Below, piece by piece: positions 46,344 to 64,000 of a stretch of DNA of 64,000 nt. The DNA is taken from assembly GCA_038153405.1 (NCBI GenBank), contig JAYOYH010000005.1, positions 32,001 to 96,000 of the forward strand, in the 5' to 3' direction. Within the stretch, counting starts at the first letter, position 1, and the number at the start of each line of letters is the position of its first letter. The position numbers were made by a program, and so were the translations under genes. Below the pieces are notes generated by a model. The model was not told where the DNA came from. It worked only from the letters and a program-made list of their open reading frames with translations, and did no database searches. Source of the stretch: Gemmatimonadota bacterium (GTDB lineage Bacteria > Latescibacterota > UBA2968 > UBA8231).

Positions 46344-48935
46344 TCAGTACGCTACCGATACGGTGCGCAACACCTCGGCGTTGTCGATATCGGCACCGGC
46401 TGTTTCCGTCGCGACGCGCAGGCGTGCATAATACACGCCCGGCACGACGAGTCGACCTGCGTCATCGCGTCCATCCCAGCGCAAGGACCGAGGCCCCGTG
46501 CTCACCGCCCGCTGCTCAACCAATCGACGCACCGCACGACCGCTCAGGTCGTAGACCATCACCTCGGCCGGGCTGTTATCGTCGACGCGCACAACGGTAA
46601 ATTCAAACGCCGTATCGTCATTTACCCCGTCGCCGTTGGGCGAGAACACGCGCGGTACGACCCGCACGTCGTAGAGCAATTCATTGCGACCAACTGCGCC
46701 GACCAGCGTCGTCGTATTACCCGCGCCCAGCGCAACGGCATTGCCCGCATCTACGCGCTGCCAAGCAGCTGTAGCGCCGGTCCTATTTTGCAGCGAAGCG
46801 CTCAGTACGGCTCCCGTTGAAAACAGCGCCGTGCGAAAGTCGAGACGCAAGAGTTCCGCGTCGCCATTCGGCCCGATGAGGGGAAAGCTCAACTGCAGGC
46901 TGTCCGCATTCGTGGCCGCAACCGACGCATCCTCTACGCGCAGGCTCTCCATATCGCCCTCGGCCATAAAGTCGGCCTCCGAACCGGCAAAAAGACCAGC
47001 AAATTCCAATTTCATATCCGATGGTGCGACCAACAATAGTTCGTCAAAACCGCTGTCGTTGCGCACAAAATCCGGCCGGATGTAGAGAGAGAAGGGACGC
47101 TCTATGCCCAGCGAATCAACTTGAAAGGGAACGACTTCTCCTACCAACCCCTGTGCTACCGGGTCGACGAAGTTGAGTCGAATAGAGCGCAGTGCAGCTG
47201 CGGCCTTGGGATCGTCTGAAACCAAGGTTGCCCTCACTTTGAGGTATTCGCGCGGCGATGGCGATGTGATCACGCTGCCCGAAGAAAGCGTATACGGCTC
47301 GCTCCAGTCACTCCAATCGTTACCCGGCACTTCTTCGGGAATAATATCTCCCTTAAAGAGCGATAGCAGCTTGCCGTACTGCGCTTCGGTCACTTCGGTG
47401 CCGTCTTTTTTGAAGTAGTGCAGGATTTCGCCCAGTTCGTTGCCCGTGCGCGTCTGAATCTGCACGCTCGTACTCGGCGGCGTGTCGGCGTCCCACTCTA
47501 TGGATAGCAGATTTCGACTCCCTCCGAGGCGAATCAAATCCGATTCCAGCGACAAGCGCGGCAGAAACCCTTCGCCATAGAGTTGGACTTCGGCCAAGAT
47601 AGCGCTGGCGCCAAAGGAGGCAACGGTCCACTGCATGCGAAAAAAGCGCGCCTGTATCGGATCGAAGCGGTTCCCTTCAAATTGGCGCTGGTACACGCCG
47701 CCCTGGTCCCTATTCAGCACGCGATTCCATTCCAAACTGCCGTCTGGGGCCAAGCTGCCGTCCGACACTTCAATGCGGTAATCGCCAAAAGTGCGGCCGC
47801 CGTACGCCAGTAGATGCGTATCGACCCAATAGAACGTCCCCAGGTCAAAAAACAGCTCGCGATTGTTGATATCGGTGGTAGCACCGGTCCAACCGCCCAC
47901 GCCCCAAACGACGATAGAGGAACTCTCCCGTCGACCGTCAATAAAGGGCCCCAGTGCCACACCCGGTTCCGTCGTAGAAATATAGCCGCCGCGCGAAACA
48001 GTGCCGCTCAGGATCTCGTCCCCTTCGCCCCATACCTCAATTTCGGCCAAGCGCGGCCGTTCGCGACGAAAGTGGCGAATGGCCGCCCGCTTTTCCGGAC
48101 TCAGCTTCTCGTAAACATCTTGGTCCACCAGCAACTGGCCACCGTCGAGCAAGTATTTATAGTATTCAATCGCACCGCGCTCGGCGACCGGCAGCTCGCC
48201 ATATTCGGCTTCTGTGACCTGCCGGCCGCGCCCGCCGTCCGTTCCGTTCACCACGATCTGAATAAACCTCAACCCCTGACTGCGGGTCTCCTTATCGGCA
48301 TTCTGCAGATCAATTTCAAAGACGCGCTGGCTCTTGTTCTCTTGCAATAGACGCATTACCGTGGAATAGTTTGGCGTCGTCGACAAGGGAGCCAGTTTCG
48401 GCTTGAGCCCATCGGATATCAGGACATCAAAGAGCAGGAAGGGATCGCCCAGTTCCTCATCGACGAATTTCAGGACAATTTTTTTTGCAAAAACAAAGCG
48501 GCCCAAGTCGAGGTTATACCACCACTGTGCCGGCAAATCGATGCCTTCAGGCACCGGCGCCGGCTCCCAATAGGTGGTGGGATCCCCATCGATCGCCTTA
48601 TACGCATCGGCGGGATTCGAGCCAACTTTTACCGCGTCGGCCAGACCGATGTCTTCCGGGTCTTTCTTGATGTGATCGGGGGTATTGAGTCGGAGAAAAT
48701 CAACGATGTCGATCACTGCGTTGGTATTCCGCTGCATGCTCTTTGGCCGCACCGTGCCATCGGAGACGTTGAGCGTGCCCTGCGGAAACGCCCAGTTTTC
48801 CCAATGGGTCTGCGCGTTAATAATAACCTGGTTGGGACCAACCCTATGTCCCTGTGCCTTCAGCTCACCGACGGACATCGTCAACGCACTAACGGCCATC
48901 AGCACACCGCACAACCACCGGAGTTTACCGATCAT
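46344..48935 (-). CDS. Secreted protein, two discoidin-like domains + C-terminal FlgD-Ig/CHU_C-like domain (long paralog 3)
   Basis: Signal peptide, IDGDPTTYW, LDLGR, AEIEVWG, FSPNGDGVND, VYDLSGR, WDGRD, PGVY; start 48935 (GGAGA RBS) or 48950. Confidence 0.82.
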   Translation of the reverse strand: MIGKLRWLCGVLMAVSALTMSVGELKAQGHRVGPNQVIINAQTHWENWAFPQGTLNVSDGTVRPKSMQRNTNAVIDIVDFLRLNTPDHIKKDPEDIGLADAVKVGSNPADAYKAIDGDPTTYWEPAPVPEGIDLPAQWWYNLDLGRFVFAKKIVLKFVDEELGDPFLLFDVLISDGLKPKLAPLSTTPNYSTVMRLLQENKSQRVFEIDLQNADKETRSQGLRFIQIVVNGTDGGRGRQVTEAEYGELPVAERGAIEYYKYLLDGGQLLVDQDVYEKLSPEKRAAIRHFRRERPRLAEIEVWGEGDEILSGTVSRGGYISTTEPGVALGPFIDGRRESSSIVVWGVGGWTGATTDINNRELFFDLGTFYWVDTHLLAYGGRTFGDYRIEVSDGSLAPDGSLEWNRVLNRDQGGVYQRQFEGNRFDPIQARFFRMQWTVASFGASAILAEVQLYGEGFLPRLSLESDLIRLGGSRNLLSIEWDADTPPSTSVQIQTRTGNELGEILHYFKKDGTEVTEAQYGKLLSLFKGDIIPEEVPGNDWSDWSEPYTLSSGSVITSPSPREYLKVRATLVSDDPKAAAALRSIRLNFVDPVAQGLVGEVVPFQVDSLGIERPFSLYIRPDFVRNDSGFDELLLVAPSDMKLEFAGLFAGSEADFMAEGDMESLRVEDASVAATNADSLQLSFPLIGPNGDAELLRLDFRTALFSTGAVLSASLQNRTGATAAWQRVDAGNAVALGAGNTTTLVGAVGRNELLYDVRVVPRVFSPNGDGVNDDTAFEFTVVRVDDNSPAEVMVYDLSGRAVRRLVEQRAVSTGPRSLRWDGRDDAGRLVVPGVYYARLRVATETAGADIDNAEVLRTVSVAY

Positions 48936-48965: not shown

Positions 48966-51569
48966 CTAGTACGCTACCGATACCGCGCGCAATACCTCGG
49001 CGTTTTCAATGCCGGCACCCGATATTTCGGTGGCAACGCGTAGACGCGCGTAGTAGATGCCCGGCGCCACCCGTTGACCTGCATCGTCGCGGCCGTCCCA
49101 ACGCAGAGAGCGCGGGCCGGTGCTCACCGCCCGCTGCTCGGCGAGGTGACGAACCGGCCGACCGCTCAGATCGTAGACCGTTACTTCCGCCGGACTGTTA
49201 TCGCTCACTCGAATAACGGTAAACTCAAAGGCCGCCTCGTCGTTCACTCCGTCGCCGTTGGGCGAGAACACGCGCGGCACCACTTCGGCGTATCGAATGA
49301 GCTCTTTGCGGCCGACAGCGCCGACGAGCGTAGTCGTGTTGCCATCTCCCAGAGCAACGGCGTTACCCGCATCTACGCGCTGCCAAGCGTTTGTTGCTCC
49401 ACGCTGCTGCAGCAGGGGTTTTAAAACGGCCCCGGTAGAAAAAAGCGCCGTGCGGAAATCGAGGCGCAATAGGTCGATGTTATCGTTGGGGCCAATGGGT
49501 GCAAACGATACGCGCAGGCTGTCGCCGCCATTGGCGGCCACTTCGACGCCTTCGGGAACCAGTGCTGTAAGATCGTTCCCCGACATAAAATCGGCCTCTG
49601 CACCAGCAAAAATACCCGTGAAATTTAGGCTCATATCAGAAGGGGCGACCAACAGCAATTCGTCAAAGCCGCTGTCGTTGCGCGTGAAATCGGGCCGGAT
49701 ATATAGCGAGAACGGGCGTTCTATGCCCAGCGAATCGACTTGAAACGGCACCAGTTCACCCACCAAACCCTGCGCCACCGGATCGACAAAATTGAGCCGA
49801 ATAGAACGCAGCGTGGCCGCAGTGTTTGGTTCGTCGGACACCAGCGTTGCCCGCACTTTGAGGTATTCGCGCGGCGACGGCGATGTAATTGGACTACCCG
49901 ATGGGAGCGCATACGGCTCACTCCAATCGCTCCAATCGTTGCCTGGCACTTCTTCGGGGACAATATCTCCTCTGAACAGCGACAGCAGCTTTCCATACTG
50001 CGCCTCCGTCACTTCGGTGCCGTCTTTTTTAAAGTAGTGCAACACCTCGCCCAATTCGTTGCCCGTGCGCGTTTGAATTTGCACGCTGGTGCCCGGCGGC
50101 GTATCGGCATCCCACTCGATAGACAGCAGATTGCGACTGCCGCCCAAGCGAATCAGATCCGACTCCAACTCGACGCGTGGCTGCACCCCCTCACCGTAGA
50201 GCTGGATCTCCGCTAGTTCAACGCGATTGCTGCCGCGCTCTTTTATCTGCCAAAACATGCGAAAGAAGCGCGCTTTAATCGGATCAAAATCGTTTCCTTC
50301 AAAGTTTTCACGCACGCGCCCGGCTTGCGAACGATCGAATGACGTTCTCCACTGCAAGGTACCGTCCGGAGCGAGCGAACCGTCTGAAAACTGCAGCTGA
50401 TAATCGCCAAAGCGGCGAAAAAGACCGCCATAGGCCATGCGGTGCGTGTCGATCCAATAAAACGAGCCCAGGTCGAAAAAGAGCTCGCGGTCAAAAATCT
50501 GCGTAGCGCCGGGTTGAGCATCCCACACCATCTGGGAAATAGTACCGCGATCGCCGTCGACAAACGAACTGAGCGCCACGTTGGGCTCGGTTGCAAAAAT
50601 AAAGCCACCGCGCGAAACGGTCCCGCTGAGAATCTCGTCGCCCAACCCCCAAACTTCGAGCTCGGCCAAGCGCGGCCGCTCTTGGCGGAAATAGCGCACG
50701 GCGCCTTGGCGCTCGGGATCTAGCTGCTCGAAGACATCCTGCCGAACCGGCACTTGGCCGCCATTAATTAACTTTTTATTGTATTCGATATCGCCTCGAT
50801 CGGCCGCCAGCAAGCCTTCGTATTCTTCCTTGGTCACCTCCCGACCTCGGCCTGCGTCCGTGCCATTGACGACTACTTGTACAAATCGGATCCCCTCGCT
50901 CTCGGCTTCGGCACTCAGCCCATCCAGATCAATTTCAAATATGCGCTGGTCCTTGTTCTCTTGCAGCGTCCTGAGCACCGTCTGGTAGCGCGGCACTTTC
51001 GACCCCGGAACGCGCGGTGGCGCCAGCCCATCGGAAACCAATACGTCAAAGAGCAGGAAGGGATCGCCCAGCGCTTCGTCGACAAACTTTAACACGAGTT
51101 TCTTGGCAAAGACAAAGCGGCCCAAATCAATGACAAACCACCACTGCGTTGCCAAATCGCTCCCTTCTTCAGCGCGATCGGGTTGCCAATAGGTCGTCAT
51201 ATCACCGTCCATAATATGGACCACATCGGCGCTATTTGAACCCGCTTTAACCGCGTCAATAAGCTCAATATCCTCGGGGGCTTTCTTGATTTCAGATGGA
51301 GTATTGAGCCGCAGAAAATCGACGATATCGGAGACGGCATTGGCATTGCGCCGCATCGTCGACGGCTGCACCTGTCCGCCAGCAATCCGCAGCGTGCCCT
51401 GGGCAAATATCCAGTTTTGCCAGTGGCTCTGGCTCTCGACAATGACTTGACTAGCGCTCAACCGGTACCCCTGTGCCCGTGCCGGGTCAGCGGAACCCAT
51501 CGCCCACACGGCTATGCACAATGCAAATATCAAACAACTGCGGTTTGCATAAAGAGCGCTCAAAACCAT
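48966..51569 (-). CDS. Secreted discoidin-like + FlgD-Ig/CHU_C-like protein (long paralog 2)
   Basis: Collinear with 46344-48935 over the whole length; FSPNGDGVND..WDGRD..PGIY. Confidence 0.82.
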   Translation of the reverse strand: MVLSALYANRSCLIFALCIAVWAMGSADPARAQGYRLSASQVIVESQSHWQNWIFAQGTLRIAGGQVQPSTMRRNANAVSDIVDFLRLNTPSEIKKAPEDIELIDAVKAGSNSADVVHIMDGDMTTYWQPDRAEEGSDLATQWWFVIDLGRFVFAKKLVLKFVDEALGDPFLLFDVLVSDGLAPPRVPGSKVPRYQTVLRTLQENKDQRIFEIDLDGLSAEAESEGIRFVQVVVNGTDAGRGREVTKEEYEGLLAADRGDIEYNKKLINGGQVPVRQDVFEQLDPERQGAVRYFRQERPRLAELEVWGLGDEILSGTVSRGGFIFATEPNVALSSFVDGDRGTISQMVWDAQPGATQIFDRELFFDLGSFYWIDTHRMAYGGLFRRFGDYQLQFSDGSLAPDGTLQWRTSFDRSQAGRVRENFEGNDFDPIKARFFRMFWQIKERGSNRVELAEIQLYGEGVQPRVELESDLIRLGGSRNLLSIEWDADTPPGTSVQIQTRTGNELGEVLHYFKKDGTEVTEAQYGKLLSLFRGDIVPEEVPGNDWSDWSEPYALPSGSPITSPSPREYLKVRATLVSDEPNTAATLRSIRLNFVDPVAQGLVGELVPFQVDSLGIERPFSLYIRPDFTRNDSGFDELLLVAPSDMSLNFTGIFAGAEADFMSGNDLTALVPEGVEVAANGGDSLRVSFAPIGPNDNIDLLRLDFRTALFSTGAVLKPLLQQRGATNAWQRVDAGNAVALGDGNTTTLVGAVGRKELIRYAEVVPRVFSPNGDGVNDEAAFEFTVIRVSDNSPAEVTVYDLSGRPVRHLAEQRAVSTGPRSLRWDGRDDAGQRVAPGIYYARLRVATEISGAGIENAEVLRAVSVAY

Positions 51570-51604: not shown

Positions 51605-54205
51605 TCAGTAGACGACGACAATGGACCGCAAAGCCTCGGCGTTGTCGATTCCAGCACCAGCGGTTTTCGTAGCAACGCGCAGGCGCGCATAGTACACGCC
51701 CGGGACCACCATATCGCCCGCATCGCTGCGCCCATCCCAGCGCAGCACGCGCGCGCCCGTGCTCACCAAACGCTGCTCGACCAAGCGCCGCACCTGTCGA
51801 CCACTCAGGTCGTAGACGATTACCTCAGCCGGACTGCTATCGCCCACGCGAACAACAGTAAATTCAAATGCCGTCTCGTCGTTAACCCCGTCGCCGTTCG
51901 GAGAAAACACCTTGGGAGTCACCGACACATCGCGAATGAGCTGCTTGCTCCCTACAGCGCCCACTAGCGTGGTCGTATTGCCCTGACCCAGTGCGATGGC
52001 ATTGCCGGCATCCACCCGCTGCCACGCGCTGTTGGCACTGCTGCGCTGCTGCAGCGCGGGCCGCAACACCGCCCCCGTCGAGAAGAGGGTCGTGCGGAAG
52101 TCCAAGCGCAGCACATCGACATTGTCGCCTGGGCCAATAGAGGGGAAAGCCACTTGCAGACTGTCTCCTCCACTGTTCACCAGTTCGACATCAGCCACCG
52201 CCAATCCATCTACACCGAGCTCCTCGCCGATAAAATCCGCTTCTTTGCCGACGTAAAACCCAACGAAGTCGAGTGTCATGTCCGGCGGTGCAACCAGCAA
52301 TAATTCGTCAAACCCGCTATCACTGCGCGCGAAGTCGGGTCGGATATACAGCGAAAAGGGCTGCTCTACGCCCAGCGAATCCACCTGAAACGGAACGACC
52401 TCACCCACCAAACCCTGTGCCACCGGATCGACAAAATCGAGCCGAATCGAGCGCAATGCCGCGGCAGCGGCCGGGTCATCGGAGACCAACGTCGCCCGCA
52501 CCTTGAGATATTCGCGCGGCGATGGCGAAATGATCGGGCTACCCGACGCGAGCGGGTACGGCTCGCTCCAATCGCTCCAGTCGTTTCCAGGCACTTCCTC
52601 GGGAACGATCTCTCCTTTGAACAGCGATAACAGCTTGCCATACTGCGCCTCGGTAACCTCCGAGCCGTCTTTCTTGAAATAGTGCAGCACTTCGCCCAGC
52701 TCATTGCCGGTGCGGGTCTGAATCAGCACGCTCGTGCCCGGCGGCGTGTCGGCATCCCAGCGGATTGACAGCAGATTGCGACTGCCTCCGAGCCGGATCA
52801 AGTCCGACTCCAGTTCTACCCGCGGTTGCACACCCTGGCCGTAGAGCTGCATTTCGGCTACGGGGGCCTGCCCCGACCCCCTAAGGTTGCGCGCCTTGGC
52901 CTGCAGGCGAAAAAAGCGCGCCTTGACCGGCTCAAAAAGATTCCCCTCAATAATTTTCTTAGGCGTTGCATCTTGCTGGCGGAACAGCGCAGTAAACCAG
53001 TTCAGCTTGCCGTCTGGACCGAGCGACCCATCCGAGAAGTCCAGCTGGTAGTCGTAAAAGCTGCGCGCATGGACGTTGCCCGGATTGTAGACGAGGCGGT
53101 GCGTATCCACCCAAAAAAACGATCCTAAATCGAAAAACAGGTCTAAGTTCAAATCCAGCGGGTCGCTGATCTCGGCAATGTCGATGGCCAGTGTGCCAAA
53201 GCTTTGGATATTGCCGTCGATGACAGAAGCTGTATTGATTTGCTGGGTCGAGGTGATAAAACCGCCGCGCTCGACAGTGCCGCTGACAATCTCATCGCCC
53301 GTGGCCCAAACCTCTAGCTCCGCCAAGCGGGGGCGCTCGCGCATGAAATAGCGGACGGCTCCCTGGCGCTCTGCCTCCAACTGTTCGTAGACGCTCTGCT
53401 TGACCACCACCTCGCGCCCGTCGGTCAGCTTCTTGCTGTACTGGATCGCGCCCCGATCACCCGCTTCGAGCGCATCGTACGCTGCGCGATCAACTTCGCG
53501 ACCTCGCTGCAAATCGCTGCCGTTCACCACGACCTGCACAAAGCGCACTCCTTCGCTCTGCGCTTCGGGCACCTCGCTGAAGTCGATCTCAAATACGCGC
53601 TGGCTCTTGTTGGGCTGCAGGTGGCGCAGGACCGTCTTGAACTCAGGCGATTTCGAACCGGGTACGCGCACCGGATTCAGCCCGTTGGAAACGAGCACGT
53701 CGAACAGCAAAAAGGGGTCGCCCAACTCCTCATCGACGAATTTTAGCACCAGCTTTTCGACAAAGACAAAGCGACCCAGGTCGACAGTGAACCACCACTG
53801 CGACTGGAGGTCGACATCGGGCTGCAGCGGATCGGGTTCCCAGTAGGTCGACATATCGCCGTCGAGGATATGCAGTACGTCCTCGCGGTTGGACCCAGCC
53901 TGAATTGCATCGATCAATTGGATATCTTCGGCCGCTTTACTGCCCAGCGTCGGCGGCGGATGAAGGCGCAGCGATTCTAATATATTGAAGGATGCGTTGA
54001 TGTCCTTGTTGAGAACGCGGGGCATCACTTCGCCGGCAGAGGAGATGCGTAGCGTGCCGGCGGGGAAAATCCAGTTATTCCAATGGCGGCCTTCTACGAC
54101 GACCTGATTAGCCGCAATGCGATGGCCCTGTCCCTCCACTGCACTAATCGGTAGCAGCGCAATGCAACATACCCACTGAATAACGTTGCTCATCAATCGT
54201 CTCAT
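51605..54205 (-). CDS. Secreted discoidin-like + FlgD-Ig/CHU_C-like protein (long paralog 1)
   Basis: Same architecture; shared blocks FVDEELGDPFLLFDVL and ESDLIRLGGSRNLLSI. Confidence 0.82.
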   Translation of the reverse strand: MRRLMSNVIQWVCCIALLPISAVEGQGHRIAANQVVVEGRHWNNWIFPAGTLRISSAGEVMPRVLNKDINASFNILESLRLHPPPTLGSKAAEDIQLIDAIQAGSNREDVLHILDGDMSTYWEPDPLQPDVDLQSQWWFTVDLGRFVFVEKLVLKFVDEELGDPFLLFDVLVSNGLNPVRVPGSKSPEFKTVLRHLQPNKSQRVFEIDFSEVPEAQSEGVRFVQVVVNGSDLQRGREVDRAAYDALEAGDRGAIQYSKKLTDGREVVVKQSVYEQLEAERQGAVRYFMRERPRLAELEVWATGDEIVSGTVERGGFITSTQQINTASVIDGNIQSFGTLAIDIAEISDPLDLNLDLFFDLGSFFWVDTHRLVYNPGNVHARSFYDYQLDFSDGSLGPDGKLNWFTALFRQQDATPKKIIEGNLFEPVKARFFRLQAKARNLRGSGQAPVAEMQLYGQGVQPRVELESDLIRLGGSRNLLSIRWDADTPPGTSVLIQTRTGNELGEVLHYFKKDGSEVTEAQYGKLLSLFKGEIVPEEVPGNDWSDWSEPYPLASGSPIISPSPREYLKVRATLVSDDPAAAAALRSIRLDFVDPVAQGLVGEVVPFQVDSLGVEQPFSLYIRPDFARSDSGFDELLLVAPPDMTLDFVGFYVGKEADFIGEELGVDGLAVADVELVNSGGDSLQVAFPSIGPGDNVDVLRLDFRTTLFSTGAVLRPALQQRSSANSAWQRVDAGNAIALGQGNTTTLVGAVGSKQLIRDVSVTPKVFSPNGDGVNDETAFEFTVVRVGDSSPAEVIVYDLSGRQVRRLVEQRLVSTGARVLRWDGRSDAGDMVVPGVYYARLRVATKTAGAGIDNAEALRSIVVVY

Positions 54206-54211
54206 AGCGTA

Positions 54212-56131
54212 TCAATAGGCCAGCGAAACGATGCGCTCGACGGCATCCGTACCCTGATCGGCAGCTATTTCCAAGCGCAGGATATACATGCCCGGCGGCA
54301 GCACCTTGCCCTCTTCGTCGCGGCCGTCCCATTGGGTAGAAAAACGACCGCTGGCAACGCTAGCCACCGGCACCGAACTAAGGCGCTGTCCCGATAGCGA
54401 GTAAATCTCGACCGTCGCCGGCACCGCACCTGCTAGGTTGAGCAAATCGTACTCAATGGTGACTCGATCGTTGACGCCATCGTTATTGGGCGTCAGCACC
54501 GGCGAAGATAAGTGCATTGTCTGAATAGTATTCGAGTCAAGTCCGGCCAAGTCCACCCGCAGCACGTCGCCGTCAAACAGGTCGTCGGCATTGCCCGGCG
54601 TCAGCGTCTGATATACCTCATCGGCCATCTCACTGTTGAACACCCGACCAGAAAACACGGTACCAAACTTAAAAACTTCGGCGCGAAAATCGACTTCGAT
54701 CAGCTCTTCTGTCTGCTGGATGCTGATCGGCGGAACGCGGACCGTAAACCCAGTATCATCTATGTTGACGAGTTCATATTCCTCTTCAATGCCGCCAATG
54801 CGCACCGCATCTACGCCAATGGCACGGGCCGGCGTGTCGATCGATATGCTATCGAAGCCCAAGTCGCCACTATCGAGATTCGGCTTGATCTTGTATGTGA
54901 ATGACGTAACCTCTCCCGCTGGCGCTCTATTCGGCTCGATTTCAGCCAGCGCTTCGCTGGCAATGGGTGGTATCGCCACAGAAAATTGCAGATAGTCGAG
55001 CTGGCCGCTGGCCTCTAGTCCGGAAAGAAAGTCGACCTTGAACTGCACAAATTGATGCGTTTTGTTGCCCACTAGATTGCCGCTCTCCGATTCAAAGTCG
55101 TAGGGCGTCGACCAAAAATTCCAATTCTCTGTATCGTGAGTAATCCCCGCTTTCTCACCCGATTCAAGCTTCTTGTAGTCAGCCAGCTTGAGGGGCCGAC
55201 CATTGGTGGCAAAGCGGGTGCGCTCATCGCCTCTGAACGTGAAGCGCCAATAGTTGTTGGGATCGTCGTCGTCACCAGCGCGCATCGCAATGTCGATCTT
55301 CGCCTCTTGGTCCTGGCGGCCCAGCCAAGTTAGCTGACCCAAGCTGGCTGGCTTGCCGAGGTCGATCACGTTAGAAACATAGTGGGCGAATGGGGCATAG
55401 CCGATACCAAAAATCTGGAATTCCGCGACTTCCCAGATCCCACGAGTATTTTCAAAGCCCTGAAACAGGATTTGCTTGATGGGGACCGGCGGCATTTCTA
55501 ACGTGATATCGGATACCGTGTTTTCGGTGATCTCGTGCGCTACGTCAAAGTTGACGAAGTGGCCGCGGGTGCCAAAATCGCGGTCGCGCGTGCCGTCCTT
55601 AAGCGGATCCCCGTCGCTAATGCCGATGACAAATTTTTGTATGAAGCGGTCGTGTTCGTGCTTTTCGCGTGGAAAAAAGCGAATTCGCTGGATCAGAAAG
55701 CGCCCACCAAAATCAAAAATCAAGTGCTTCTGCGGCGGCGCGTGGGCAGCAAAGTGCCCATCGCCCAGGTAGGCCGTGCCGGGATCCTCGTCAAAAAAGA
55801 CCAGATCCTCTTCGAGTCGGCGTTCCCAACCCGTCCAACCTAGTGCTAGGATCTGTCCCCCGTTGCTTTCGAGTGCAGGCGTGAGATTCACGCTGGGATC
55901 AAGCTCGCGCGGTTTGATATAGTCCGGGCTGACTTCTAGCAGTTCCAAGCTGCCGTGACGGGCTTCTTCTGCCTCGTCCCAGCTGAGCTGAACAAACTCA
56001 AAGTCTCCGCCGAACTCGGGTCGCGGCAGATTCTCACCGCCGATGCGGAAAATCGTGAGCGCATCTGCATTCGCCCCCCACCCCAACGCCAACGCAAACA
56101 GTGCGCTACCCAAAAGTCCGAAGCGATTCAT
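54212..56131 (-). CDS. Secreted single-discoidin-like + FlgD-Ig/CHU_C-like protein (short paralog 2)
   Basis: Signal peptide, IFDFGG..RIRFFPR, WEVAEFQIFG, LTPNNDGVND, WDGRD, PGMY; GGAG RBS before 56131. Confidence 0.82.
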   Translation of the reverse strand: MNRFGLLGSALFALALGWGANADALTIFRIGGENLPRPEFGGDFEFVQLSWDEAEEARHGSLELLEVSPDYIKPRELDPSVNLTPALESNGGQILALGWTGWERRLEEDLVFFDEDPGTAYLGDGHFAAHAPPQKHLIFDFGGRFLIQRIRFFPREKHEHDRFIQKFVIGISDGDPLKDGTRDRDFGTRGHFVNFDVAHEITENTVSDITLEMPPVPIKQILFQGFENTRGIWEVAEFQIFGIGYAPFAHYVSNVIDLGKPASLGQLTWLGRQDQEAKIDIAMRAGDDDDPNNYWRFTFRGDERTRFATNGRPLKLADYKKLESGEKAGITHDTENWNFWSTPYDFESESGNLVGNKTHQFVQFKVDFLSGLEASGQLDYLQFSVAIPPIASEALAEIEPNRAPAGEVTSFTYKIKPNLDSGDLGFDSISIDTPARAIGVDAVRIGGIEEEYELVNIDDTGFTVRVPPISIQQTEELIEVDFRAEVFKFGTVFSGRVFNSEMADEVYQTLTPGNADDLFDGDVLRVDLAGLDSNTIQTMHLSSPVLTPNNDGVNDRVTIEYDLLNLAGAVPATVEIYSLSGQRLSSVPVASVASGRFSTQWDGRDEEGKVLPPGMYILRLEIAADQGTDAVERIVSLAY

Positions 56132-56169
56132 AACATTCTCCATCCGGGAATACCCGTTTACACAATCGG

Positions 56170-58083
56170 TCAATACGCCACCGAAACGATGCGTTCTCTA
56201 ACGGCCGTGCCACCGTCTGTTTGCACTGCGAGGCGGACGATATACATCCCGGGCGGCAACACCGTCCCGCTGGCATCGCGTCCGTTCCAAGCCATGGAAA
56301 ACCGACCGCTCTCAGCAGTCCCCGAGGAAATGGCAGCCAAGCGTCGACCCGATAGATCGTATATTTCGATCATCGCCGGCACAGTCCCCATCAAATTGAG
56401 CAGGTCGTATTCTATCTCGACTTCGTCGTTGATGCCATCGCCGTTAGGTGTTAGCACCGGTGAAGACAGGCTCATGGCCTGAATAGTCGGCTGCGATAGA
56501 CCCTGCAAATCAACCCGCAGCGCATTGGCATCGACCAGAGGGTCCGCATCGCCCGGCGTCACCGTCTGATGCACTTCCTGTGGGCGCTCGCTGTCAAAGA
56601 CTCGTCCCGAAAATACAGTGCCAAATTTAAACACCTCTGCCTGAAATTCGACTTCGATCAACTCCCCCGTTTGATCGGTGTCTATCCGGGGAATGCGGAC
56701 GGTAAATCCGCCGTCGTCTAGAGCGGCCACTTCAAAGCGAGCCTCTATGCCTCCGACGCGCACCGCGTCGATGCTAACGGGCCGAGCCGGCGTATCGATG
56801 GAAATGCTATCAAAGCCGAGATCATCGGCCTTGAGGCGGGGCTTGATTTTGTAAATAAAGGGAGCGACCGTCCCCGCAGGCACCTGATTGGGCGTTATCT
56901 CAGCCATGACCTCATTGGCCACCGGCGGAATGGAAACCTTGAATTGCAGATAGTCGAGTTGACCGCCAGTGGCTAAGCTCGACGTAAAATCAGCTTTAAA
57001 CTGCACGAACCGACGCGGTTTGCTGCTTATGAGATCGCCGCCCAACGCACCGAACTCATAGGGAGTCGACCAAAAGTCCCAATTCTCCGTATCGTGGGTA
57101 ATCCCCGCCTTTTCGCCCGAATCTAGCTTGTTGTAGCTCTTGAGCACCAGCGGCACCCCGTTGACATCAAAGCGCGCGCGCTCGTCACCCCTGAAAGTAA
57201 AACGCCAGTAGTTGTTGGGATCTTCGTCGTCGCCAGCGCGCATGGCAATATCGACCCCAGAAGCGGCCGCTTGGCGGCCAGACCACACCACCTCACCGAG
57301 ACTGGCCGGAGCGCCGAGGTCGATTATGTTGGATATATAGCTGGACTGCGGAGCAAAACCAATACCGTAGAGCGCTAACTCGGCGACCTCCCATATCCCA
57401 CGCGCGTTTTCCGGCGCTTCAAACAGCAGCATGCGCACAGGCACCTGCGGCAGCTTCAGATTGAGCTGTGACTCTGTATTCTCAAATAGCTGGTGGGCGA
57501 TATCAAAATCGAAGTACTGATCTCTATGTCCAGATACAAATTCACGCGTGCCGTCTTTGAGTGGGTCTCCATCGTTTAACCCAATGGTCAGCGTCTCTAT
57601 AAAGCGATCGTTGAGAAAGCGATCGCGCGGCGACAGTTCAATGCGATCCAGGAGAAAAACGCCGCCCAGATCGAAGATCATCGATTTCTGGCGTATGACT
57701 CCGTAGTCGCCACCCCAATCGCCGTCGCCGAGAAAGGCCGTGGCGGGATCGCCGTCAAACATCTTGAGATCGCGGCCAAAGGCCGGCCCCCACCCCGTCC
57801 AAGTCAACGAGAGAATGCGACCGCCCAGTGCCTCGAGTTGCGGCGTGAGGTTAACCGTCGGATCGAGCTGCTGCGGCCCGATAAAATCCGGAGCAATTTG
57901 CAGGAGGTAGGCACTGCCGTGGCGAGCGGGATCGACCTCCGACCAAGACATCTGCACAAAATCGTAGGGCGCGTCCAACTCGGGCTGCGGAACGCCCTCT
58001 CCGCCGATTCGATAAATCGTAACAGCACTGGCCGGCTGTATGACGGCGAGACAGAAAATGGCAAACCATCCCCATATTCTCAT
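56170..58083 (-). CDS. Secreted single-discoidin-like + FlgD-Ig/CHU_C-like protein (short paralog 1)
   Basis: Collinear with 54212-56131; LTPNGDGIND, IYDLSGR, WNGRD, PGMY. Confidence 0.82.
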   Translation of the reverse strand: MRIWGWFAIFCLAVIQPASAVTIYRIGGEGVPQPELDAPYDFVQMSWSEVDPARHGSAYLLQIAPDFIGPQQLDPTVNLTPQLEALGGRILSLTWTGWGPAFGRDLKMFDGDPATAFLGDGDWGGDYGVIRQKSMIFDLGGVFLLDRIELSPRDRFLNDRFIETLTIGLNDGDPLKDGTREFVSGHRDQYFDFDIAHQLFENTESQLNLKLPQVPVRMLLFEAPENARGIWEVAELALYGIGFAPQSSYISNIIDLGAPASLGEVVWSGRQAAASGVDIAMRAGDDEDPNNYWRFTFRGDERARFDVNGVPLVLKSYNKLDSGEKAGITHDTENWDFWSTPYEFGALGGDLISSKPRRFVQFKADFTSSLATGGQLDYLQFKVSIPPVANEVMAEITPNQVPAGTVAPFIYKIKPRLKADDLGFDSISIDTPARPVSIDAVRVGGIEARFEVAALDDGGFTVRIPRIDTDQTGELIEVEFQAEVFKFGTVFSGRVFDSERPQEVHQTVTPGDADPLVDANALRVDLQGLSQPTIQAMSLSSPVLTPNGDGINDEVEIEYDLLNLMGTVPAMIEIYDLSGRRLAAISSGTAESGRFSMAWNGRDASGTVLPPGMYIVRLAVQTDGGTAVRERIVSVAY

Positions 58084-58146
58084 GATTCAATTACCTCGCT
58101 CAGCAGCGTGAGGGTAACAGCCCAAAAATCGCTACAACATTATATA

Positions 58147-58185
58147 ATAAAAAAGAGGGGAGATCAACCGCGATCTCCCCTCTTT
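58147..58185 (-). terminator. Intrinsic terminator downstream of the SWGxIK-tailed gene
   Basis: 14-bp perfect stem AAAGAGGGGAGATC/GATCTCCCCTCTTT, 6-nt loop, T-run on the minus strand. Confidence 0.85.
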
Positions 58186-58224
58186 CAATATGGTCTAAGA
58201 CCAACTTACAAGCGCTACATCAGG

Positions 58225-59133
58225 CTAGCGAGCAACCGAAGCCTTGATTTGACCCCAGCTGTCATTCTCGACGGCAGTCGGCAGGTTAGCCGTGTCGACC
58301 GGGAGAAGGATAAAATCGCTGAAGGAGCTGGCATTGCCGAAGATATCCGACTGGCCACCCAAAACCCACTTCCAGGTCTTGGGATCATCTTCGGTGCCGT
58401 TGTCGTTATCGACGACCTGCAGACCGGCACCGACGATCTCGCCTTCGACAAAGTCGTGGCGGACGCTCTGATCCGGACCGGCAAAGTTGAAATCGTCCCA
58501 AGCGACCGTGTACCACTCGGCCTGAATCGTGGCCTCAGAGCCGTGCACACCGTCCAGCGTGAACGAATCGGTGCAGCAAGAATGAGGCTCTTCGTCGTGC
58601 CAGTCAGCGGTGGTCATCCAGAACCAGTACCAGCCGAAGGGCTCAAGAGCCGGCCAACGGTAGTGACCCGTCTGGGCCTGACGACCGCGCGTGCGCAGCG
58701 CTTCTTCTTCGGTCTGGCCTTCCTGGCTCCAGAACCAGTCGCCGCTGTGATCGGCGTCAAGACCGACCTCAATGCTATCGTCCTGACCGCAGCAGCCAAC
58801 ACCGCCCGCATCGCGGTCCCACACGTTGTCGTAGCGATCGTACACGTAGTAAATGCGATCCAGCTCGTCGTTCCAACCCATTGCAAAGCGGAACCACAGG
58901 TCAGAAGTATCTACGGGCTTACCGCTACCATCATCAACGGCGAAAAGGTCGCCATTGATCTCGAGCCACAGTTCGGACGGCAAGACATCCCATTCGGAAA
59001 TATCACCATCCAAATTGGGAAGGTGCGACGTCGGCCAGTTCCAAGCGCCGAAGATGAGACCCTCGGGAACGTGTGCCGAAGCGGGCGCTGCAGACAACGC
59101 TGCGACGGCCGCCAGTGCAATCAGCTTCTTCAT
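58225..59133 (-). CDS. Secreted CBM9/DOMON-like protein with C-terminal TAVExxSWGxIK motif
   Basis: AGGAGG RBS, signal peptide MKKLIALAA..PASA/H, LDGDISEW, MGWNDELDRIY, DADH, tail TAVENDSWGQIKASVAR. Confidence 0.82.
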   Translation of the reverse strand: MKKLIALAAVAALSAAPASAHVPEGLIFGAWNWPTSHLPNLDGDISEWDVLPSELWLEINGDLFAVDDGSGKPVDTSDLWFRFAMGWNDELDRIYYVYDRYDNVWDRDAGGVGCCGQDDSIEVGLDADHSGDWFWSQEGQTEEEALRTRGRQAQTGHYRWPALEPFGWYWFWMTTADWHDEEPHSCCTDSFTLDGVHGSEATIQAEWYTVAWDDFNFAGPDQSVRHDFVEGEIVGAGLQVVDNDNGTEDDPKTWKWVLGGQSDIFGNASSFSDFILLPVDTANLPTAVENDSWGQIKASVAR

Positions 59134-59311
59134 TGGTAACCTCCTGGTCAGAAGCGGTGGTAAAACGAGCAACACAAGTGCAAGAACTATCATACGCATA
59201 TACTAAGCGAAACTCGTGGGCAATCTAAATTGTCTTCTAATACATGTCAAGCTAATTTTTTCCGCATCCGCCGGGTTTATTATCTCTTTTCCATGGGGGC
59301 AGATAGCAGTA

Positions 59312-61051
59312 TCAGGAATCTCCTTTTACGGGCGTACCCGTCGCCCAAGGCATCGCACTACGACTCAGCTCCTTGCGCAGGGCGACTTGCTGCAGTTGGC
59401 GCGCCTTGTCGAGATATTTTTCCATTTCCTTGGGTTTTCCCTGACGCCCATAGGCTTTGCCCAACGCCAGATAGGCCCGCTCATATCCGTCGTCGAGTTC
59501 GACGGCCAGCTTGAAGGCCGCAACGGCTTTATCAAACCGGCCCATCTGAAAATACTCTACGCCCAGATTGTAATGCGCCGGCGCAAAGTCAGCATCGCGC
59601 GCCAGCGCCTGTTTGTGATAGCGGATGGCTTGCTGACGCTGCCCCGCCACCGAATAGGCAATCCCCAAATGGGTGTAGGCGGTAGCATAGCTGCTGTCGA
59701 TGGCAAGCGCCCTTTTGTGCGAGGCAATGGCCTGCTCCACTTTTCCCTCGCGACTGTAGGCCACACCGAGGTCGTCGTGCACCTTGGCCACCTCCGGTGT
59801 CAGGCGCGCCAGGTACTCTTTGGCATCCAACGTCGACATCGAGTACGTCGCATCTGTCCAAGCAAAAAACAGAATGGGCACGCCGAAGTACACCAGTTGC
59901 TTGCCCGTCTCGAACACGTAGGAAAACCCCGGCCACCGGTTGCCCAACGAACGCAGGCGATCCACAATCCCCAAGCGCACGTCGGCTTCGTCTGCGGCCA
60001 CTTCGTCGGCGACGAAGTTCTGGCGAATTTCCCTCTTGTGCACCTTCCACATGAATCCATCGTAGTAGTAGTGCATAAAGGCCGTGGTTGCGATCAATAC
60101 CTTGACCAAGTCGTATATCAGGTAGTTCTCAGTCGCTCGCGCCATCGCCTCTACACCACCATAGGCTAAAATCAACGCCAAATAGATCAGGATGATGCGA
60201 AAGCGACCATCGGCAAAAAGAAAGCGAAAGAACGATGAGCCCAATCTTTCTGAGCGCTTTAGGACGCCGTGGTTATAGATCCAGACAATAGCAAAGTACT
60301 GTATGTCGTGCGCGAGTGCGGTCATCGCGTATCCCAAAATGACGTCATCCATCACGATATAGGCATAGTAAACAGTGAGAAATGTAGTCGCCGTAATGGC
60401 CAGCTTAGGCCAGACGATGGGGGCTCCCTGCCTGCTCGAACGCACTAGATGGACTACGTAGGCCACGGATATGGCCACGGCCAGAACGAGTAGCCCCTGC
60501 CGCAGCAGGGAAACGTATTCGGGTTGAAACCAGGTGTACAACCCGAAGCCGTAGCGGTGACAGCGCTCCATAAAATTGACGAGATAGTGCGGGCTGGCGA
60601 CGACGATGTAGGTAAAGCATATCGCCGTGAGCAACCAGTCGAATCGGCCGCTCAAACGGGAAGGCTTGTGGCGTTTAACCTCGTATATGCGCATAAAACC
60701 GTAGTGCTGCATAAAGAAGTGCCACATGTCCCACAGGGCGAGAAATATAAAGAAGCCCAGATGGCCGTTGAAGACGCTCCATCCCACACAGGCGACGATG
60801 ACCAGCGGAGATATGATAAAGCGAGCCTTGTAACGATCGAAGAGTTCGCGCTCGCCATAGGCTCGCATCAGACCGGGCAAGTGATGCCCAACGGCGAAAA
60901 AAGCCAGGACAAAGAGGGCGATGTCAAAGGAGCTAAAGTAGTTGGACGCCGCCTGCAAGAGGACCAGCGAAAGCAGAGGCGTACCGATGAAGAACAGCGA
61001 ATCGCTGACCCGGTTGATGATCCAGCCCTGGGAGGCGCTACTGTTGCCCAT
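59312..61051 (-). CDS. Polytopic membrane protein with His motifs and C-terminal TPRs
   Basis: GHH, WHFFMQHYGF, AHDIQYF, HYYYDGFMW in TM region; TPRs (LGVAY, HYNLG). Confidence 0.78.
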   Translation of the reverse strand: MGNSSASQGWIINRVSDSLFFIGTPLLSLVLLQAASNYFSSFDIALFVLAFFAVGHHLPGLMRAYGERELFDRYKARFIISPLVIVACVGWSVFNGHLGFFIFLALWDMWHFFMQHYGFMRIYEVKRHKPSRLSGRFDWLLTAICFTYIVVASPHYLVNFMERCHRYGFGLYTWFQPEYVSLLRQGLLVLAVAISVAYVVHLVRSSRQGAPIVWPKLAITATTFLTVYYAYIVMDDVILGYAMTALAHDIQYFAIVWIYNHGVLKRSERLGSSFFRFLFADGRFRIILIYLALILAYGGVEAMARATENYLIYDLVKVLIATTAFMHYYYDGFMWKVHKREIRQNFVADEVAADEADVRLGIVDRLRSLGNRWPGFSYVFETGKQLVYFGVPILFFAWTDATYSMSTLDAKEYLARLTPEVAKVHDDLGVAYSREGKVEQAIASHKRALAIDSSYATAYTHLGIAYSVAGQRQQAIRYHKQALARDADFAPAHYNLGVEYFQMGRFDKAVAAFKLAVELDDGYERAYLALGKAYGRQGKPKEMEKYLDKARQLQQVALRKELSRSAMPWATGTPVKGDS

Positions 61052-61120
61052 CGTCAAATACCTGCAAAAGCCTTTGGGAATAGGGGTAGAACCGGCACCG
61101 CACCGGCTCATCGGATAAAG

Positions 61121-64000
61121 CTAAAACCCAGCAAAAATCGATATAAAGGCCACGCCTGCCGTGCGAGATTCACGGTCTTGCTCGACGACCTCGAGCGAGC
61201 GCCGATCGTAGCGAACGCCGACTTGCGTCGTCATGTTATAGCCTAAATAAGGCCGCGTATTTGTCAACTGCAACGCGACAACCGTGCCGCGAAAGTCGCC
61301 CGTTAACATCCCTGCAGCCATCTCTTCCTCATCGCCTAGAAGATTGGAAAAGTTTCGCTGTTCGAGACCCACTTCTATGCGCGTGGACTGCAGCAGCGGA
61401 AAGCTGACCTGGAGAAAGAGCAACGCGTCCCAGCTGCGCTGCTTTACAGCGCTACGGCTAAAGGGCACTTCGCGCAAAAACTCGCTTTTGATTTTGGGTG
61501 ACAGGGAGAGACGACCCCAGTTGAGCAGATAGTCGGCCTTGTTGATCACCCCCAAAAAACTCGAGGTCTCTCGCCCGTTGCGACCGTCCGGACCGAGCGG
61601 ATCGAAAAAAACAATGGCCTCGCCCGCTTCGTCGCGAACGATCTCCCCGGCTTCGTCGCGCAGTAGTTCAACGTCGACATTGCGCTGTTGCCACCAATCC
61701 CATTTGAAGCGGTGGCGCATACCCCAGTTGCGCGGGCTGGAGTACTGCCAGTCGGCGGCCAGCGAGTTAATCCAAGTATCTTCCGCCGCCAACAGGTCAA
61801 CCACCGGCTCATTGCGGCCACCAGTCTCGACCGGATTGCCAAAGCGCGGGCGGGGCAGAACCCACTGCGATAGATGGTCGTGTATCGTATCTTCCGCCTG
61901 CCGCAGCATATTGAAGACGCGCACCTTACCCACTCTCGGCAGGCTCTTCTCGAAGGTAAAAATGCCGTACGCCGTCGTATTATGTCGATCTGAGCCGCGC
62001 ATTTCCTCGTCGAGCCGCCCTAGCGTGAGCTTTATCTCCGGCGAAACTTCGACGCTGCCGTATACATTGTGACCCCAGTGGTCGCGCTTGTAGGGATAGT
62101 CGGGCTCGTCGTCGTTTTCAAAGCGGTCGACCCAGCCGTTGTTGTTGAGGTCTATGCCAAATAGAAATTCGGGGCGATCGACGTGGTAGCGCAGAAACGG
62201 CTCGTCGTAGTCGGGAAAGAAATTTTGCCGATCGCCGTTGCTGTTCTGGTTGAAGTCAGAGAGGAAATCGCCGTTCTCATCAAAACCGGGAAATACGGCT
62301 GGATCCGCCACGCCCTCCGGCGTTACGCTAAATAGCTGCCCGGGAATCGGGATCAGGCTGCCCTGATTGAAGCGCAGTTGATCGGGATGGCGATCGTTAT
62401 CGTCGTTGTCTTCTACGAAGTCGTAGTTGCGATTGGTCGCTTCCGGTGAGTAATCCACCGTGCCGCGGGGATTAACTGGCCGCACAGACGAATTGTATTC
62501 TTCGTCCATGCCAAATGCCTCCAGAAAGAAGTGCCATGGACCGGCCTGCTTCGACAAGTTAGCCATCCAGCCGATCGCCCGTTCGTCGTCGACAATCCCG
62601 CTTATGGCCGTGCGATTCTTGGCATTGACCGAGGGATACTTCCGATACTGGTTGTTGACGTTGAATTCGCCGTAGAAATCAAAGCCATGAAAATCGCGTA
62701 GCTCGGCCGTGGCGCCAAAGATTTGATTGGCGGTAGGCAAGCCATAGTCGAATACTACCTCGCGCTGATTGAGTCGGTTGCGAATATTGCCCGGGGCACG
62801 CGATACGACGATAAACTGCGGTTGACCAACGTTGTTGACCTGACGATCGGAAGCGACCTCAACGCGATAGTCGTTGGCCACCACCAGGCGCACGCGCACG
62901 TTCTTTATCGCCGTCACCGCGTCTTCGGCTTCGGCCAGCGTCAGGCCCAAGCCCTGCTGCAAGCGCAGCCGCAGCGAACTCTCCTGGTCGTCCTCCGTGC
63001 CGGTCAACTGGTACTTCAGCGTTATACTTTCGGCGCCGTCTGCCGTGAGGAAACCGTCTCGCACGCTGCCGCCTTCGCGCGCGGCGCGAAAGCCAATGCT
63101 TGAACCGGTAATAACCGTATCCCTAGGCACCAACTCAACGCCCGTTGGCCCCTCGACTTCTCTCATCAACGTCGTAGCAATCTGCACGTCTTCGCTAAAG
63201 AGCACGGCGCCCCCGGTCCCATCCTCGGGGCTATCGTCGGAGAGCCGAACGACCAGAAGCGTCTGGCGCTGCTCGATCTGACCACCGGTAAGCAATCCCT
63301 TGAATGGATTGTCCTGAAAGCTCTCGCGCGCACCGGTGCCGTTGTGCGCATTGACAAACGTCGCTCCAAGCGTCAGCGAGTTGTTGACAGCCGCTTCTAT
63401 ACGACCGCCCATCAAGTTGGTAAAGTGCGAGGCGGGGCGCGTCGGAATTTCGGCGTCAATGGCAATAATGGGGTTGGATATGCGCGAGAACAGGCCCGTA
63501 ACTTCGACGTTACTATTGGCAGCGCTAATCACTACGCCATTGAAACCGGCCTTGCGAAAGGTCATCGGCGTCAATGTCGTATTGATCTCGTCGCCTATCA
63601 TGATCGAGTAGCTGTAATCGCCGCTCTGGTCTGAGGCGATGACCAGACGGTTAAACCAGCTTCCGTAGATGCCCGGCTTAGTCACTTCGCTCGACTCAAA
63701 AGACAGCGGTTGGCGCTGGCGCCAATCGTAAACCAGTCGACCGCGCGTAATCAAATCGCCAAAGCTATCGTAGAAATAAAATCCCTCCTGATTGCGATCG
63801 ATGTAGCGAAGGTACGACTCCCTAGCATAGTTGGTGTATTCGCGCTGGCGCAGTCCGTATTCCGTGAAGAGTTCCTGCGGCAGGTACCAGCGCTGTACGG
63901 TCGGATCAAGTGCCCCGATCTCGATGGACAGCCCCGATGCCGAATAGGTGCTGCGATCGCCTATTCGACGTCCCAAGCGATTGCCGTAGTCCATTTGTGC
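61121..64000 (-). CDS. Large putative outer-membrane beta-barrel protein (5' partial)
   Basis: At least 957 aa; frame stays open to the window edge (A-Q-M); amphipathic strands and terminal ..AFISIFAGF; Asp/Asn-rich loops. Confidence 0.7.
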   Translation of the reverse strand, partial: AQMDYGNRLGRRIGDRSTYSASGLSIEIGALDPTVQRWYLPQELFTEYGLRQREYTNYARESYLRYIDRNQEGFYFYDSFGDLITRGRLVYDWRQRQPLSFESSEVTKPGIYGSWFNRLVIASDQSGDYSYSIMIGDEINTTLTPMTFRKAGFNGVVISAANSNVEVTGLFSRISNPIIAIDAEIPTRPASHFTNLMGGRIEAAVNNSLTLGATFVNAHNGTGARESFQDNPFKGLLTGGQIEQRQTLLVVRLSDDSPEDGTGGAVLFSEDVQIATTLMREVEGPTGVELVPRDTVITGSSIGFRAAREGGSVRDGFLTADGAESITLKYQLTGTEDDQESSLRLRLQQGLGLTLAEAEDAVTAIKNVRVRLVVANDYRVEVASDRQVNNVGQPQFIVVSRAPGNIRNRLNQREVVFDYGLPTANQIFGATAELRDFHGFDFYGEFNVNNQYRKYPSVNAKNRTAISGIVDDERAIGWMANLSKQAGPWHFFLEAFGMDEEYNSSVRPVNPRGTVDYSPEATNRNYDFVEDNDDNDRHPDQLRFNQGSLIPIPGQLFSVTPEGVADPAVFPGFDENGDFLSDFNQNSNGDRQNFFPDYDEPFLRYHVDRPEFLFGIDLNNNGWVDRFENDDEPDYPYKRDHWGHNVYGSVEVSPEIKLTLGRLDEEMRGSDRHNTTAYGIFTFEKSLPRVGKVRVFNMLRQAEDTIHDHLSQWVLPRPRFGNPVETGGRNEPVVDLLAAEDTWINSLAADWQYSSPRNWGMRHRFKWDWWQQRNVDVELLRDEAGEIVRDEAGEAIVFFDPLGPDGRNGRETSSFLGVINKADYLLNWGRLSLSPKIKSEFLREVPFSRSAVKQRSWDALLFLQVSFPLLQSTRIEVGLEQRNFSNLLGDEEEMAAGMLTGDFRGTVVALQLTNTRPYLGYNMTTQVGVRYDRRSLEVVEQDRESRTAGVAFISIFAGF

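Follow-up and report, generated by a model that had tools for sequence, protein, structure and literature searches.

To our knowledge, TonB-dependent receptors represent the one well-known class of energized outer-membrane (OM) nutrient gate. In systems of the SusC/SusD type, many paralogous loci encode a large OM barrel together with non-catalytic sugar-binding partners, and ExbB, ExbD and TonB are supplied from a few hub loci. A second arrangement is that of the type B cargo of type IX secretion (the T9SS), typified by SprB-SprF and PG1035-PorP-PorE, in which the C-terminal domain begins F/L-T/S-PNGDG-x-ND and the cargo gene is located directly before that of a barrel (PMC9143113 and PMC12618676). 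The locus described here bears a likeness to both. It is located in a 64,000-nucleotide stretch (the window) of a Latescibacterota genome deposited as Gemmatimonadota bacterium (GCA_038153405.1, contig JAYOYH010000005.1, positions 32001 to 96000, or G000:C5:32001-96000, where G000 is the source genome, which is 93% complete, and C numbers designate its contigs). The locus comprises a row of minus-strand genes which extends from position 46344 past the window edge into the continuing stretch, L001, and which encodes two predicted giant barrels, six proteins with a long C-terminal tail and one protein with a very short tail. The gene kit is real, recurrent and apparently undescribed, and we favor, plausibly but still tentatively, an interpretation of the locus as a satellite of an undescribed system of glycan capture and uptake, driven by a proton motor encoded elsewhere in the genome, in which type IX secretion would display the lectins.

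The large protein of this row was regarded in the initial annotation as an OM barrel, an assignment which was borne out by a confident AlphaFold2 model (pLDDT, 85.1; pTM, 0.82; alignment of 82 sequences, versus a pLDDT of 30.5 for the single-sequence fold) and by fold matches of the barrel type. This protein, barrel A (981 aa; window positions 61121 to 64000, L001:1121-4066, minus strand, with a signal-peptide-like start 66 nt past the window edge), is thus predicted to be an OM beta-barrel. The strand list of the model contains 23 long strands across mature residues 118 to 957, with mostly alternating hydropathy, and a 24th strand is likely to be present near the N terminus, the count of approximately 24 being based on this list. 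Short turns are modeled on one side of the barrel and long loops on the other, the latter including a beta-sandwich insert of approximately 200 aa (mature residues 222 to 419) and an acidic loop of approximately 140 aa (mature residues 498 to 639). The C terminus of an OM barrel is usually periplasmic and, if this holds for barrel A, the insert and the acidic loop would face outward, as both are located on the long-loop side. The acidic loop is the most conserved region of the barrel (conservation, 0.54; 23% Asp/Glu), and its DxDxN-type motifs suggest Ca2+ binding.

Neither barrel A nor barrel B (963-aa ORF; L001:4066-6957), which is encoded upstream of barrel A beyond the window edge and is 40% identical to it, matched any Pfam or NCBIfam family, and PDB sequence searches with the barrel profiles returned nothing significant. 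No Pfam match to the TonB-receptor barrel (PF00593) or plug (PF07715) was observed in any of 22 paralogs of the genome or 40 distant members. The top Foldseek matches of barrel A are MtrB (6r2q), Deinococcus SlpA (8ae1, 8agd, and 7zgx) and LptD; these and the ushers FimD and PapC are likewise large OM barrels, from which barrel A differs in its low TM-score (query length, ≤0.25), its identity of 6 to 12% and its partners. On the model, the giant barrel therefore appears to be without a close solved relative among the structures compared. Matches in the ESM Atlas were confined to unnamed Latescibacterota/Gemmatimonadota clusters; the nearest named cluster, DUF6029 (0.89), is a lead only, and has been loosely tied to polysaccharide export (PMC9603273).

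A candidate link between these barrels and a motor is provided by a small number of hub operons. On C7 and C34, divergent barrels precede genes encoding a membrane-anchored tetratricopeptide repeat (TPR) protein of approximately 1,080 aa, ExbB and ExbD; DUF4159 is encoded within the operon or next to it, and a third barrel/TPR/ExbB/ExbD set is present on C85. Three of the four ExbB genes of the genome reside in such barrel-type operons with a giant TPR protein and DUF4159, the fourth being found with the sole canonical TonB. The full hub order (tailed gene, barrel, CBM9-like gene, lipoprotein, PorV-like gene, TPR, ExbB, ExbD, and DUF4159) is known from relatives, being whole in three of six and partial in one, and not from the joining of C10 to C85. 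The PorV-like pieces at the ends of these two contigs (C10:1-777 and C85:14275-14706) share 81% identity over their overlap, representing either two copies or an assembly break, and the contig ends themselves do not overlap; C10 and C85 were accordingly not shown to constitute one hub operon. In a quick tree of 34 rows, a single clade of 17 members (SH-aLRT, 100) holds both the window barrels and the hub barrels of C10. The DUF4159 proteins possess one N-terminal hydrophobic helix, which contains a His residue in most cases, and a Lys/Pro-rich linker. An N-terminal helix with a His residue followed by a Lys/Pro-rich linker is also the layout of TonB, to which the DUF4159 proteins would therefore be similar; unlike in the Ton system, the putative transducer ends in DUF4159 rather than TonB_C and is accompanied by the TPR protein of approximately 1,080 aa.

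The presumed partners of the barrels are the tailed proteins, here termed passengers. Three members of a long subfamily (46344 to 48950, 868 aa, ending SVAY; 48966 to 51569, 867 aa; 51605 to 54205, 866 aa) and two of a short subfamily (54212 to 56173, 653-aa ORF with a likely start at 56131; 56170 to 58083, 637 aa) are encoded on the minus strand of the window, with identities of 61 to 70% among the three long proteins, 60% between the two short proteins and 25 to 28% across the subfamilies. Each has a start resembling a signal peptide, one or two F5/8-type-C (CBM32-like) domains, a conserved core of approximately 300 aa and a type-B-like C-terminal domain of approximately 105 aa. CBM32/discoidin structures were matched by the passenger profiles (best E value, 9e-6), an ESM Atlas search pointed to F5/8 type C and nothing further, and sequence searches detected no catalytic domain; at the sequence level, the description of these proteins as lectin-like and without a recognizable catalytic domain was thereby upheld. 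FlgD-Ig/CHU_C-like tail motifs, as claimed previously, are present in all five paralogs, whose tails all end V/L-A/V-Y. The Pfam cut-off was reached for CHU_C in four of the five and for FlgD_ig in three; including the sixth tailed protein, all six scored below the TIGR04131 cut-off (14.9 to 24.4, versus 35) and one passed that of TIGR04183. By these profiles, the long tail would fall between known T9SS tail types, differing from canonical type B tails in its TIGR04131 scores and its terminal Tyr. A true flagellar FlgD identity was ruled out, as the match is confined to the last ~90 aa and lies far below the cut-offs.

The same genome encodes 46 further proteins with type-A-like tails, in 21 of which a T[AS][VI] motif is present 85 to 125 residues from the end, versus 1 of 51 long-tailed passengers; in three upstream control windows, the motif was found in 2, 0, and 1 of the 46. 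The apparent lack of this linker suggests that passengers keep their tail, as does PG1035, a type B cargo which retains its own (PMC9143113). Components for export are available: the search for T9SS parts proposed in the initial annotation recovered SprA (a 2,132-aa SprA_N protein, C29:30661-37059), a Peptidase_C25 (PorU) gene followed directly by PorV (C91:167-5065), and a second Peptidase_C25 protein (C48:5701-11277). PorP/SprF (PF11751) was without a match at an E value of 0.001, GldM and GldN were not found (controls for these searches were silent and the genome is incomplete; GldL was not searched), and GldK gave only partial matches below the cut-off. The gene content thus points to a reduced T9SS outside the Bacteroidota, with SprA, PorU, PorV and three tail classes; T9SS has already been placed in the FCB superphylum (PMC11205867). 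No paper linking Latescibacter with type IX secretion was found, although supplementary genome surveys could list SprA there.

The third tail class is represented by the SWGxIK tail, which had been assigned to one gene and was recovered at the end of a 324-aa ORF (58225 to 59199, minus strand; likely start, 59133; tail, PTAVENDSWGQIKASVAR). The family profile matches the CBM9 module of Xyn10A (1i82; E value, 8e-6), the W-x-x-D-S motif of CBM9 is retained, and PF06452 is matched by three of nine family members and not by the window protein alone. This exported protein is, on those matches, CBM9-like; like the CBM32-like passengers, it would stand alone, without the attached hydrolase of Xyn10A. 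A paralog without the tail (window 41003 to 41863, plus strand; divergent from a DUF6785 gene) is 30% identical to it. The short tail has the form PT-AVE-x-x-(S/T)WGxIK, and a strict pattern for it was found in 15 of 16,698 ORFs of the genome and in none of the same ORFs reversed. Among 17 short-tail proteins (22 loose-pattern matches, 5 of which were dropped by eye as probable chance), 13 carry T[AS][VI] in their last 30 residues, compared to 100 of 4,297 background ORFs, and among 64 distinct tailed proteins of related genomes, the residues T, V, and E occupy fixed positions in 60, 62, and 62, respectively. Because it also terminates other exported proteins far from barrels in the source genome, the short tail is probably a general signal. 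The T-A-V linker common to the short tail and the type A tails is a likely sortase site, and both tail classes are presumed, from their sequences, to be PorU substrates; PT/GI is a preferred T9SS cleavage site, with a small residue usually following the cut (PMC11969387). If it is a T9SS signal, the short tail of approximately 20 residues is far shorter than the 40- to 55-residue short tails of Prevotella.

The recurrence of the gene order within and across genomes, a check proposed at the outset, was evident. In the source genome, 23 giant barrels (versus 6 TonB-dependent receptor genes) and 52 passengers were identified, and 33 of the 52 passengers are located within 10 kb of a barrel; the corresponding figures are 2 of 46 for the type-A-like proteins and 44 of 689 for the remaining long ORFs. 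The best 80 of at least 613 confirmed related loci, which are close kin and not independent, are mostly titled Ca. Latescibacterota or Gemmatimonadota, and contain passengers in 76 cases and the SWGxIK family in 64. Across a phylum sample of 151 genomes, barrels occur in 91, passengers (E value, 1e-40) in 78, all of these in barrel-positive families, and SprA in 148. In three barrel-positive families that gave no strict passenger match, the genomes sampled harbor divergent passengers, and four families (60 genomes) gave neither a barrel nor a passenger match, yet possess SprA in 59 cases. The barrel profile retrieved 1,277 clusters at 50% identity. Literature searches, which did not cover supplements or subscription papers, returned no paper on the barrel family or the short tail.

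The barrel family falls outside both the TonB-dependent receptors and PorP/SprF, and the system likely works in the manner of SusCD. Of the readings offered in the initial annotation, a SusCD-like capture complex fits best, although neither Pfam nor NCBIfam gave a SusD match for any protein of the locus and a TonB-receptor match is lacking; unlike in SusCD, the barrel of approximately 24 strands is without a plug match, and the partners are T9SS-tailed proteins rather than SusD lipoproteins. We infer transport, surface exposure and every contact in the following model of uptake, in which the two giant barrels would be gated OM channels and the tailed proteins their surface sugar-binding partners. 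The six long-tailed proteins would first cross the OM via SprA with the tail kept, to be held by a few PorV-like barrels encoded in the hubs, much as type B cargo is held by PorP/SprF. The CBM9-like protein would be cut by PorU at T-A-V and subsequently attached to the surface, like the type A cargo of the genome. The lectins would then gather glycan at the barrel, which would be gated by its large outward loops and opened by ExbB/ExbD, with the hub-encoded DUF4159 and TPR proteins as intermediaries. Finally, the nearby DUF6785 membrane proteins may carry the product across the inner membrane. Latescibacteria have been predicted to be degraders or users of polysaccharides (PMC4454575).

Several observations weigh against this uptake model. 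The locus itself encodes no motor, PorV-like or DUF4159 protein, so that coupling has to be assumed in trans, and in two of the six relatives the PorV-like gene was seen without a hub. In contrast to typical polysaccharide-utilization loci, the row yielded neither a glycoside hydrolase nor any other catalytic domain, and CBM32-like folds need not bind sugar. Only 4 of 21 DUF6785 cases in the genome lie close to a barrel, DUF6785 is present in only 12 of the 80 related loci, and Pfam DUF4159 occurs in 150 of the 151 genomes, with or without barrels, its presence or absence therefore being uninformative. Of 12 PorV-like genes in the genome, two or three are located in barrel operons, and these few would have to serve 52 passengers; several orphan type B substrates can, however, use one shuttle (PMC12618676), so that such sharing could be accommodated. 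Lastly, the sequences of adjacent barrels and tails vary together (Mantel r, 0.39; P = 0.008; 14 pairs), which would fit a direct barrel-tail partnership equally well and which is explained by duplication of whole cassettes.

Such a partnership is the core of the strongest alternative, in our view an unlikely one, which takes the giant barrel itself for the cognate shuttle or anchor of the long tail, in place of PorP/SprF, and the whole for an accessory by which the T9SS displays adhesins. In the genome, 15 of the 23 barrels have a tailed gene directly upstream (and 4 have one downstream); in the related loci, a tailed gene directly precedes 69 of 149 barrels, and another barrel occupies that position in 48 more; tailed genes directly followed by barrels are also present in G001 (L124) and on C34. 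This is the cargo-then-shuttle order described for type B cargo (PMC12618676), and both the silence of the genome for PorP/SprF and the restriction of strict passenger matches to barrel-positive families are in keeping with it. PorV and PorP-like shuttles are, however, 14-stranded (PMC9143113) and far smaller than the giant barrel, which is three times as large as PorP, is unrelated to it by sequence and has no PF11751 match. Furthermore, in a comparison of 19 loci from five distant genomes, a passenger precedes the barrels in eight, and in seven of these a small PorV-like gene, the separate candidate holder also present in the hub operons, lies between them; the direct order can thus arise by its loss. 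Nine barrel loci (seven of G003 and two of G006) are without a passenger in the stretch examined, the seven G003 satellites (approximately 20 kb covered in each) containing barrels in every case, DUF4159 in six, the CBM9-like gene in six, DUF6785 in four and no long-tailed gene. Barrels also occur in tandem, as pairs or trios, and the motor would not be explained by an anchor role. The giant barrels are therefore probably not the shuttle of the tail: while the idea of a T9SS-related module is sustained by SprA, PorU and PorV, the PorP/SprF-like display role initially proposed for the barrel is only weakly supported.

A somewhat less likely alternative regards the barrels as usher-like export or assembly platforms, or as SlpA-like S-layer tiles, by which the tailed proteins would be assembled into a surface structure, with the motor powering assembly. 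Usher FimD is 24-stranded and is among the tied top VIA-align matches of barrel A (FhaC, FimD, CymA, and TamA; Z, 13 to 14; rmsd, 8.5 to 13), with 335 residues aligned over positions 126 to 954 (Z, 13.8; rmsd, 8.9). SlpA provides the longest alignment listed (424 aligned; Z, 10.8; rmsd, 6.7), weak SlpA_C matches below the cut-off were obtained for 1 of 22 genome paralogs and 6 of 40 distant members, and foldases accompany the barrels, being located within ~6 kb of 8 of 10 paralogs. Against this reading stand the low TM-scores to the listed solved barrels and the topology, as the plug of an usher is connected at the periplasmic face, whereas the insert of barrel A is placed by strand parity on the outer, long-loop side. 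In addition, the passengers bear a tail with which SprA could already export them, and barrel loci without passengers exist. A surface device for sensing or for adhesion and motility, which would signal ligand binding via barrel, TPR protein and motor without bulk import, is improbable: ExbB/ExbD-type motors with TPR scaffolds do drive gliding in myxobacteria, and the failure to find GldM and GldN leaves room for another motor to serve T9SS cargo, but the presence of SprA in 59 of the 60 barrel-less genomes indicates that the barrel system is not a general T9SS motor, and barrel copies that number in the tens per genome and have diverged would suit substrate variety better than motility.

Returning to the glycan uptake interpretation, its full consequence is a joint claim that we advance with less assurance than the interpretation itself. 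It posits a second, independently evolved class of energized OM transporter with plugless barrels of approximately 24 strands, gates formed by outward Ca2+-binding loops, an ExbB/ExbD drive acting via DUF4159 and a giant TPR protein, T9SS-displayed lectins and tens of copies per Latescibacterota genome, together with a tail of approximately 20 residues (T-A-V-E-x-x-x-W-G-x-I-K) as an ultra-short, sortase-processed signal. If true, barrels of another build with their own ExbB/ExbD motor would constitute a new transporter class, which could explain the uptake of algal polymers by widespread uncultured aquatic bacteria. A reduced T9SS whose three tail classes include an ultra-short one would furthermore make the minimal signal and the need for a Gld motor testable in Flavobacterium. 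New points arising from the analysis are the shared T-A-V linker, the passenger-free barrel loci, an accessory His/TPR gene and a probably separate transcription unit for the CBM9-like gene, the latter two of which are detailed below.

All eight minus-strand ORFs described for the window, from 46344 to beyond 64000, were recovered from the ORF list. The locus of approximately 18 kb originally delimited proved to be part of a longer row, which continues beyond the window with barrel B and a sixth tailed protein (758 aa; L001:6905-9181) upstream of it, and at whose upstream end lies the gene for a divergent SurA/PrsA-like foldase (L001:9497-11221). Between barrel A and the CBM9-like gene, a multi-pass membrane protein is encoded (59312 to 61111, minus strand; 599 aa) with five invariant His residues (H76, H77, H131, H268, and H347) and C-terminal TPRs. 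Its membrane domain matched no family, the best matches shown (60 of 477) all residing in the TPR part. This protein, previously counted as part of the system, was rejected as a core component since it is present in only 17 of the 80 related loci, and is better described as accessory. Motifs of its membrane family include GHHLPG, WH-x3-Q-x-G, H-x2-QY, and HYYYDG, a His pattern which we take to resemble that of His-ligated membrane iron enzymes, such as Brp/Blh.

The row is probably not a single transcript. On its two sides, the CBM9-like gene is separated from its neighbors by 141 and 112 nt; a promoter-like site (59222 to 59250, minus strand; 10/12 consensus, a weak pattern match only) precedes it and a terminator-like hairpin of 16 pairs with a T run follows it (58186 to 58151 within the feature 58139 to 58186, minus strand), on which grounds one operon for the whole row was rejected and a separate transcription unit for this gene appears probable. 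The hairpin is overlapped by a second promoter-like site (58167 to 58139, minus strand), located before the five paralogs, and no promoter-like site was detected by the scan upstream of the first gene of the row. As the totals are near chance expectation (two promoter-like sites versus 0.9 expected; one terminator versus 1.4), only the positions of these signals are informative. Across 51 related loci, a T run is present behind the SWGxIK-family gene in 42, the median fold energy of the hairpin after these genes is approximately -30 kcal/mol, versus -20 to -23 kcal/mol inside the gene, and a promoter-like site lies ahead of the gene in 9, versus none of 51 control windows. Contigs of RNA libraries cover the CBM9-like gene almost end to end in all four runs, from three studies, and end near 58212 to 58253, the other genes of the row being represented by short scattered contigs; given the small word shares of these runs (0.06 to 0.18) and coverage without a control stretch, this is a hint only and not an expression level.

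Located 1.5 to 10 kb downstream of the row are two DUF6785 genes, the tail-less CBM9-like gene and two aldo-keto reductase genes. The DUF6785/DUF6784 multi-pass membrane proteins (window 35930 to 37846, plus strand; 38889 to 40829, minus strand) belong to a set of 21 paralogs in the genome, one of which is fused within a 2,122-aa protein (C5:115786-122154). Two other barrel loci (C7:91200-99905 and C60:10903-19434) adjoin a recurring trio encoding a 660-aa membrane protein, DUF6785, and a peptidase-M28/FtsX fusion of approximately 1,550 aa. A GT-C membrane protein (PMT_2-like, below the cut-off) with TPRs, which could glycosylate exported proteins, is encoded at 41895 to 43775 (minus strand), and an FG-GAP repeat protein with CxxCH at 44711 to 46161 (minus strand) appears to be split into ORFs of 333 and 153 aa with a 13-nt overlap, possibly as a result of a frameshift or an assembly error. 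Just upstream of the row (L001:11387-20000; C5:103387-115663), a cluster was recognized by eye that encodes TPR proteins, several proteins of FG-GAP/ASPIC-like type and a membrane protein with pentapeptide-like repeats, and comparable sets are found beside other barrel loci. At the opposite end of the window, a lone ORF with FliG-like ends (by eye; 11644 to 12678, plus strand) is apparently without flagellar neighbors. It is followed at 12774 to 19468 (plus strand) by three ORFs of approximately 420 to 440 aa which, by eye, are ATP-grasp-like, an ORF of 454 aa and a gene resembling, again by eye, those of sodium-solute symporters, a run which may represent a small-peptide biosynthesis cluster.

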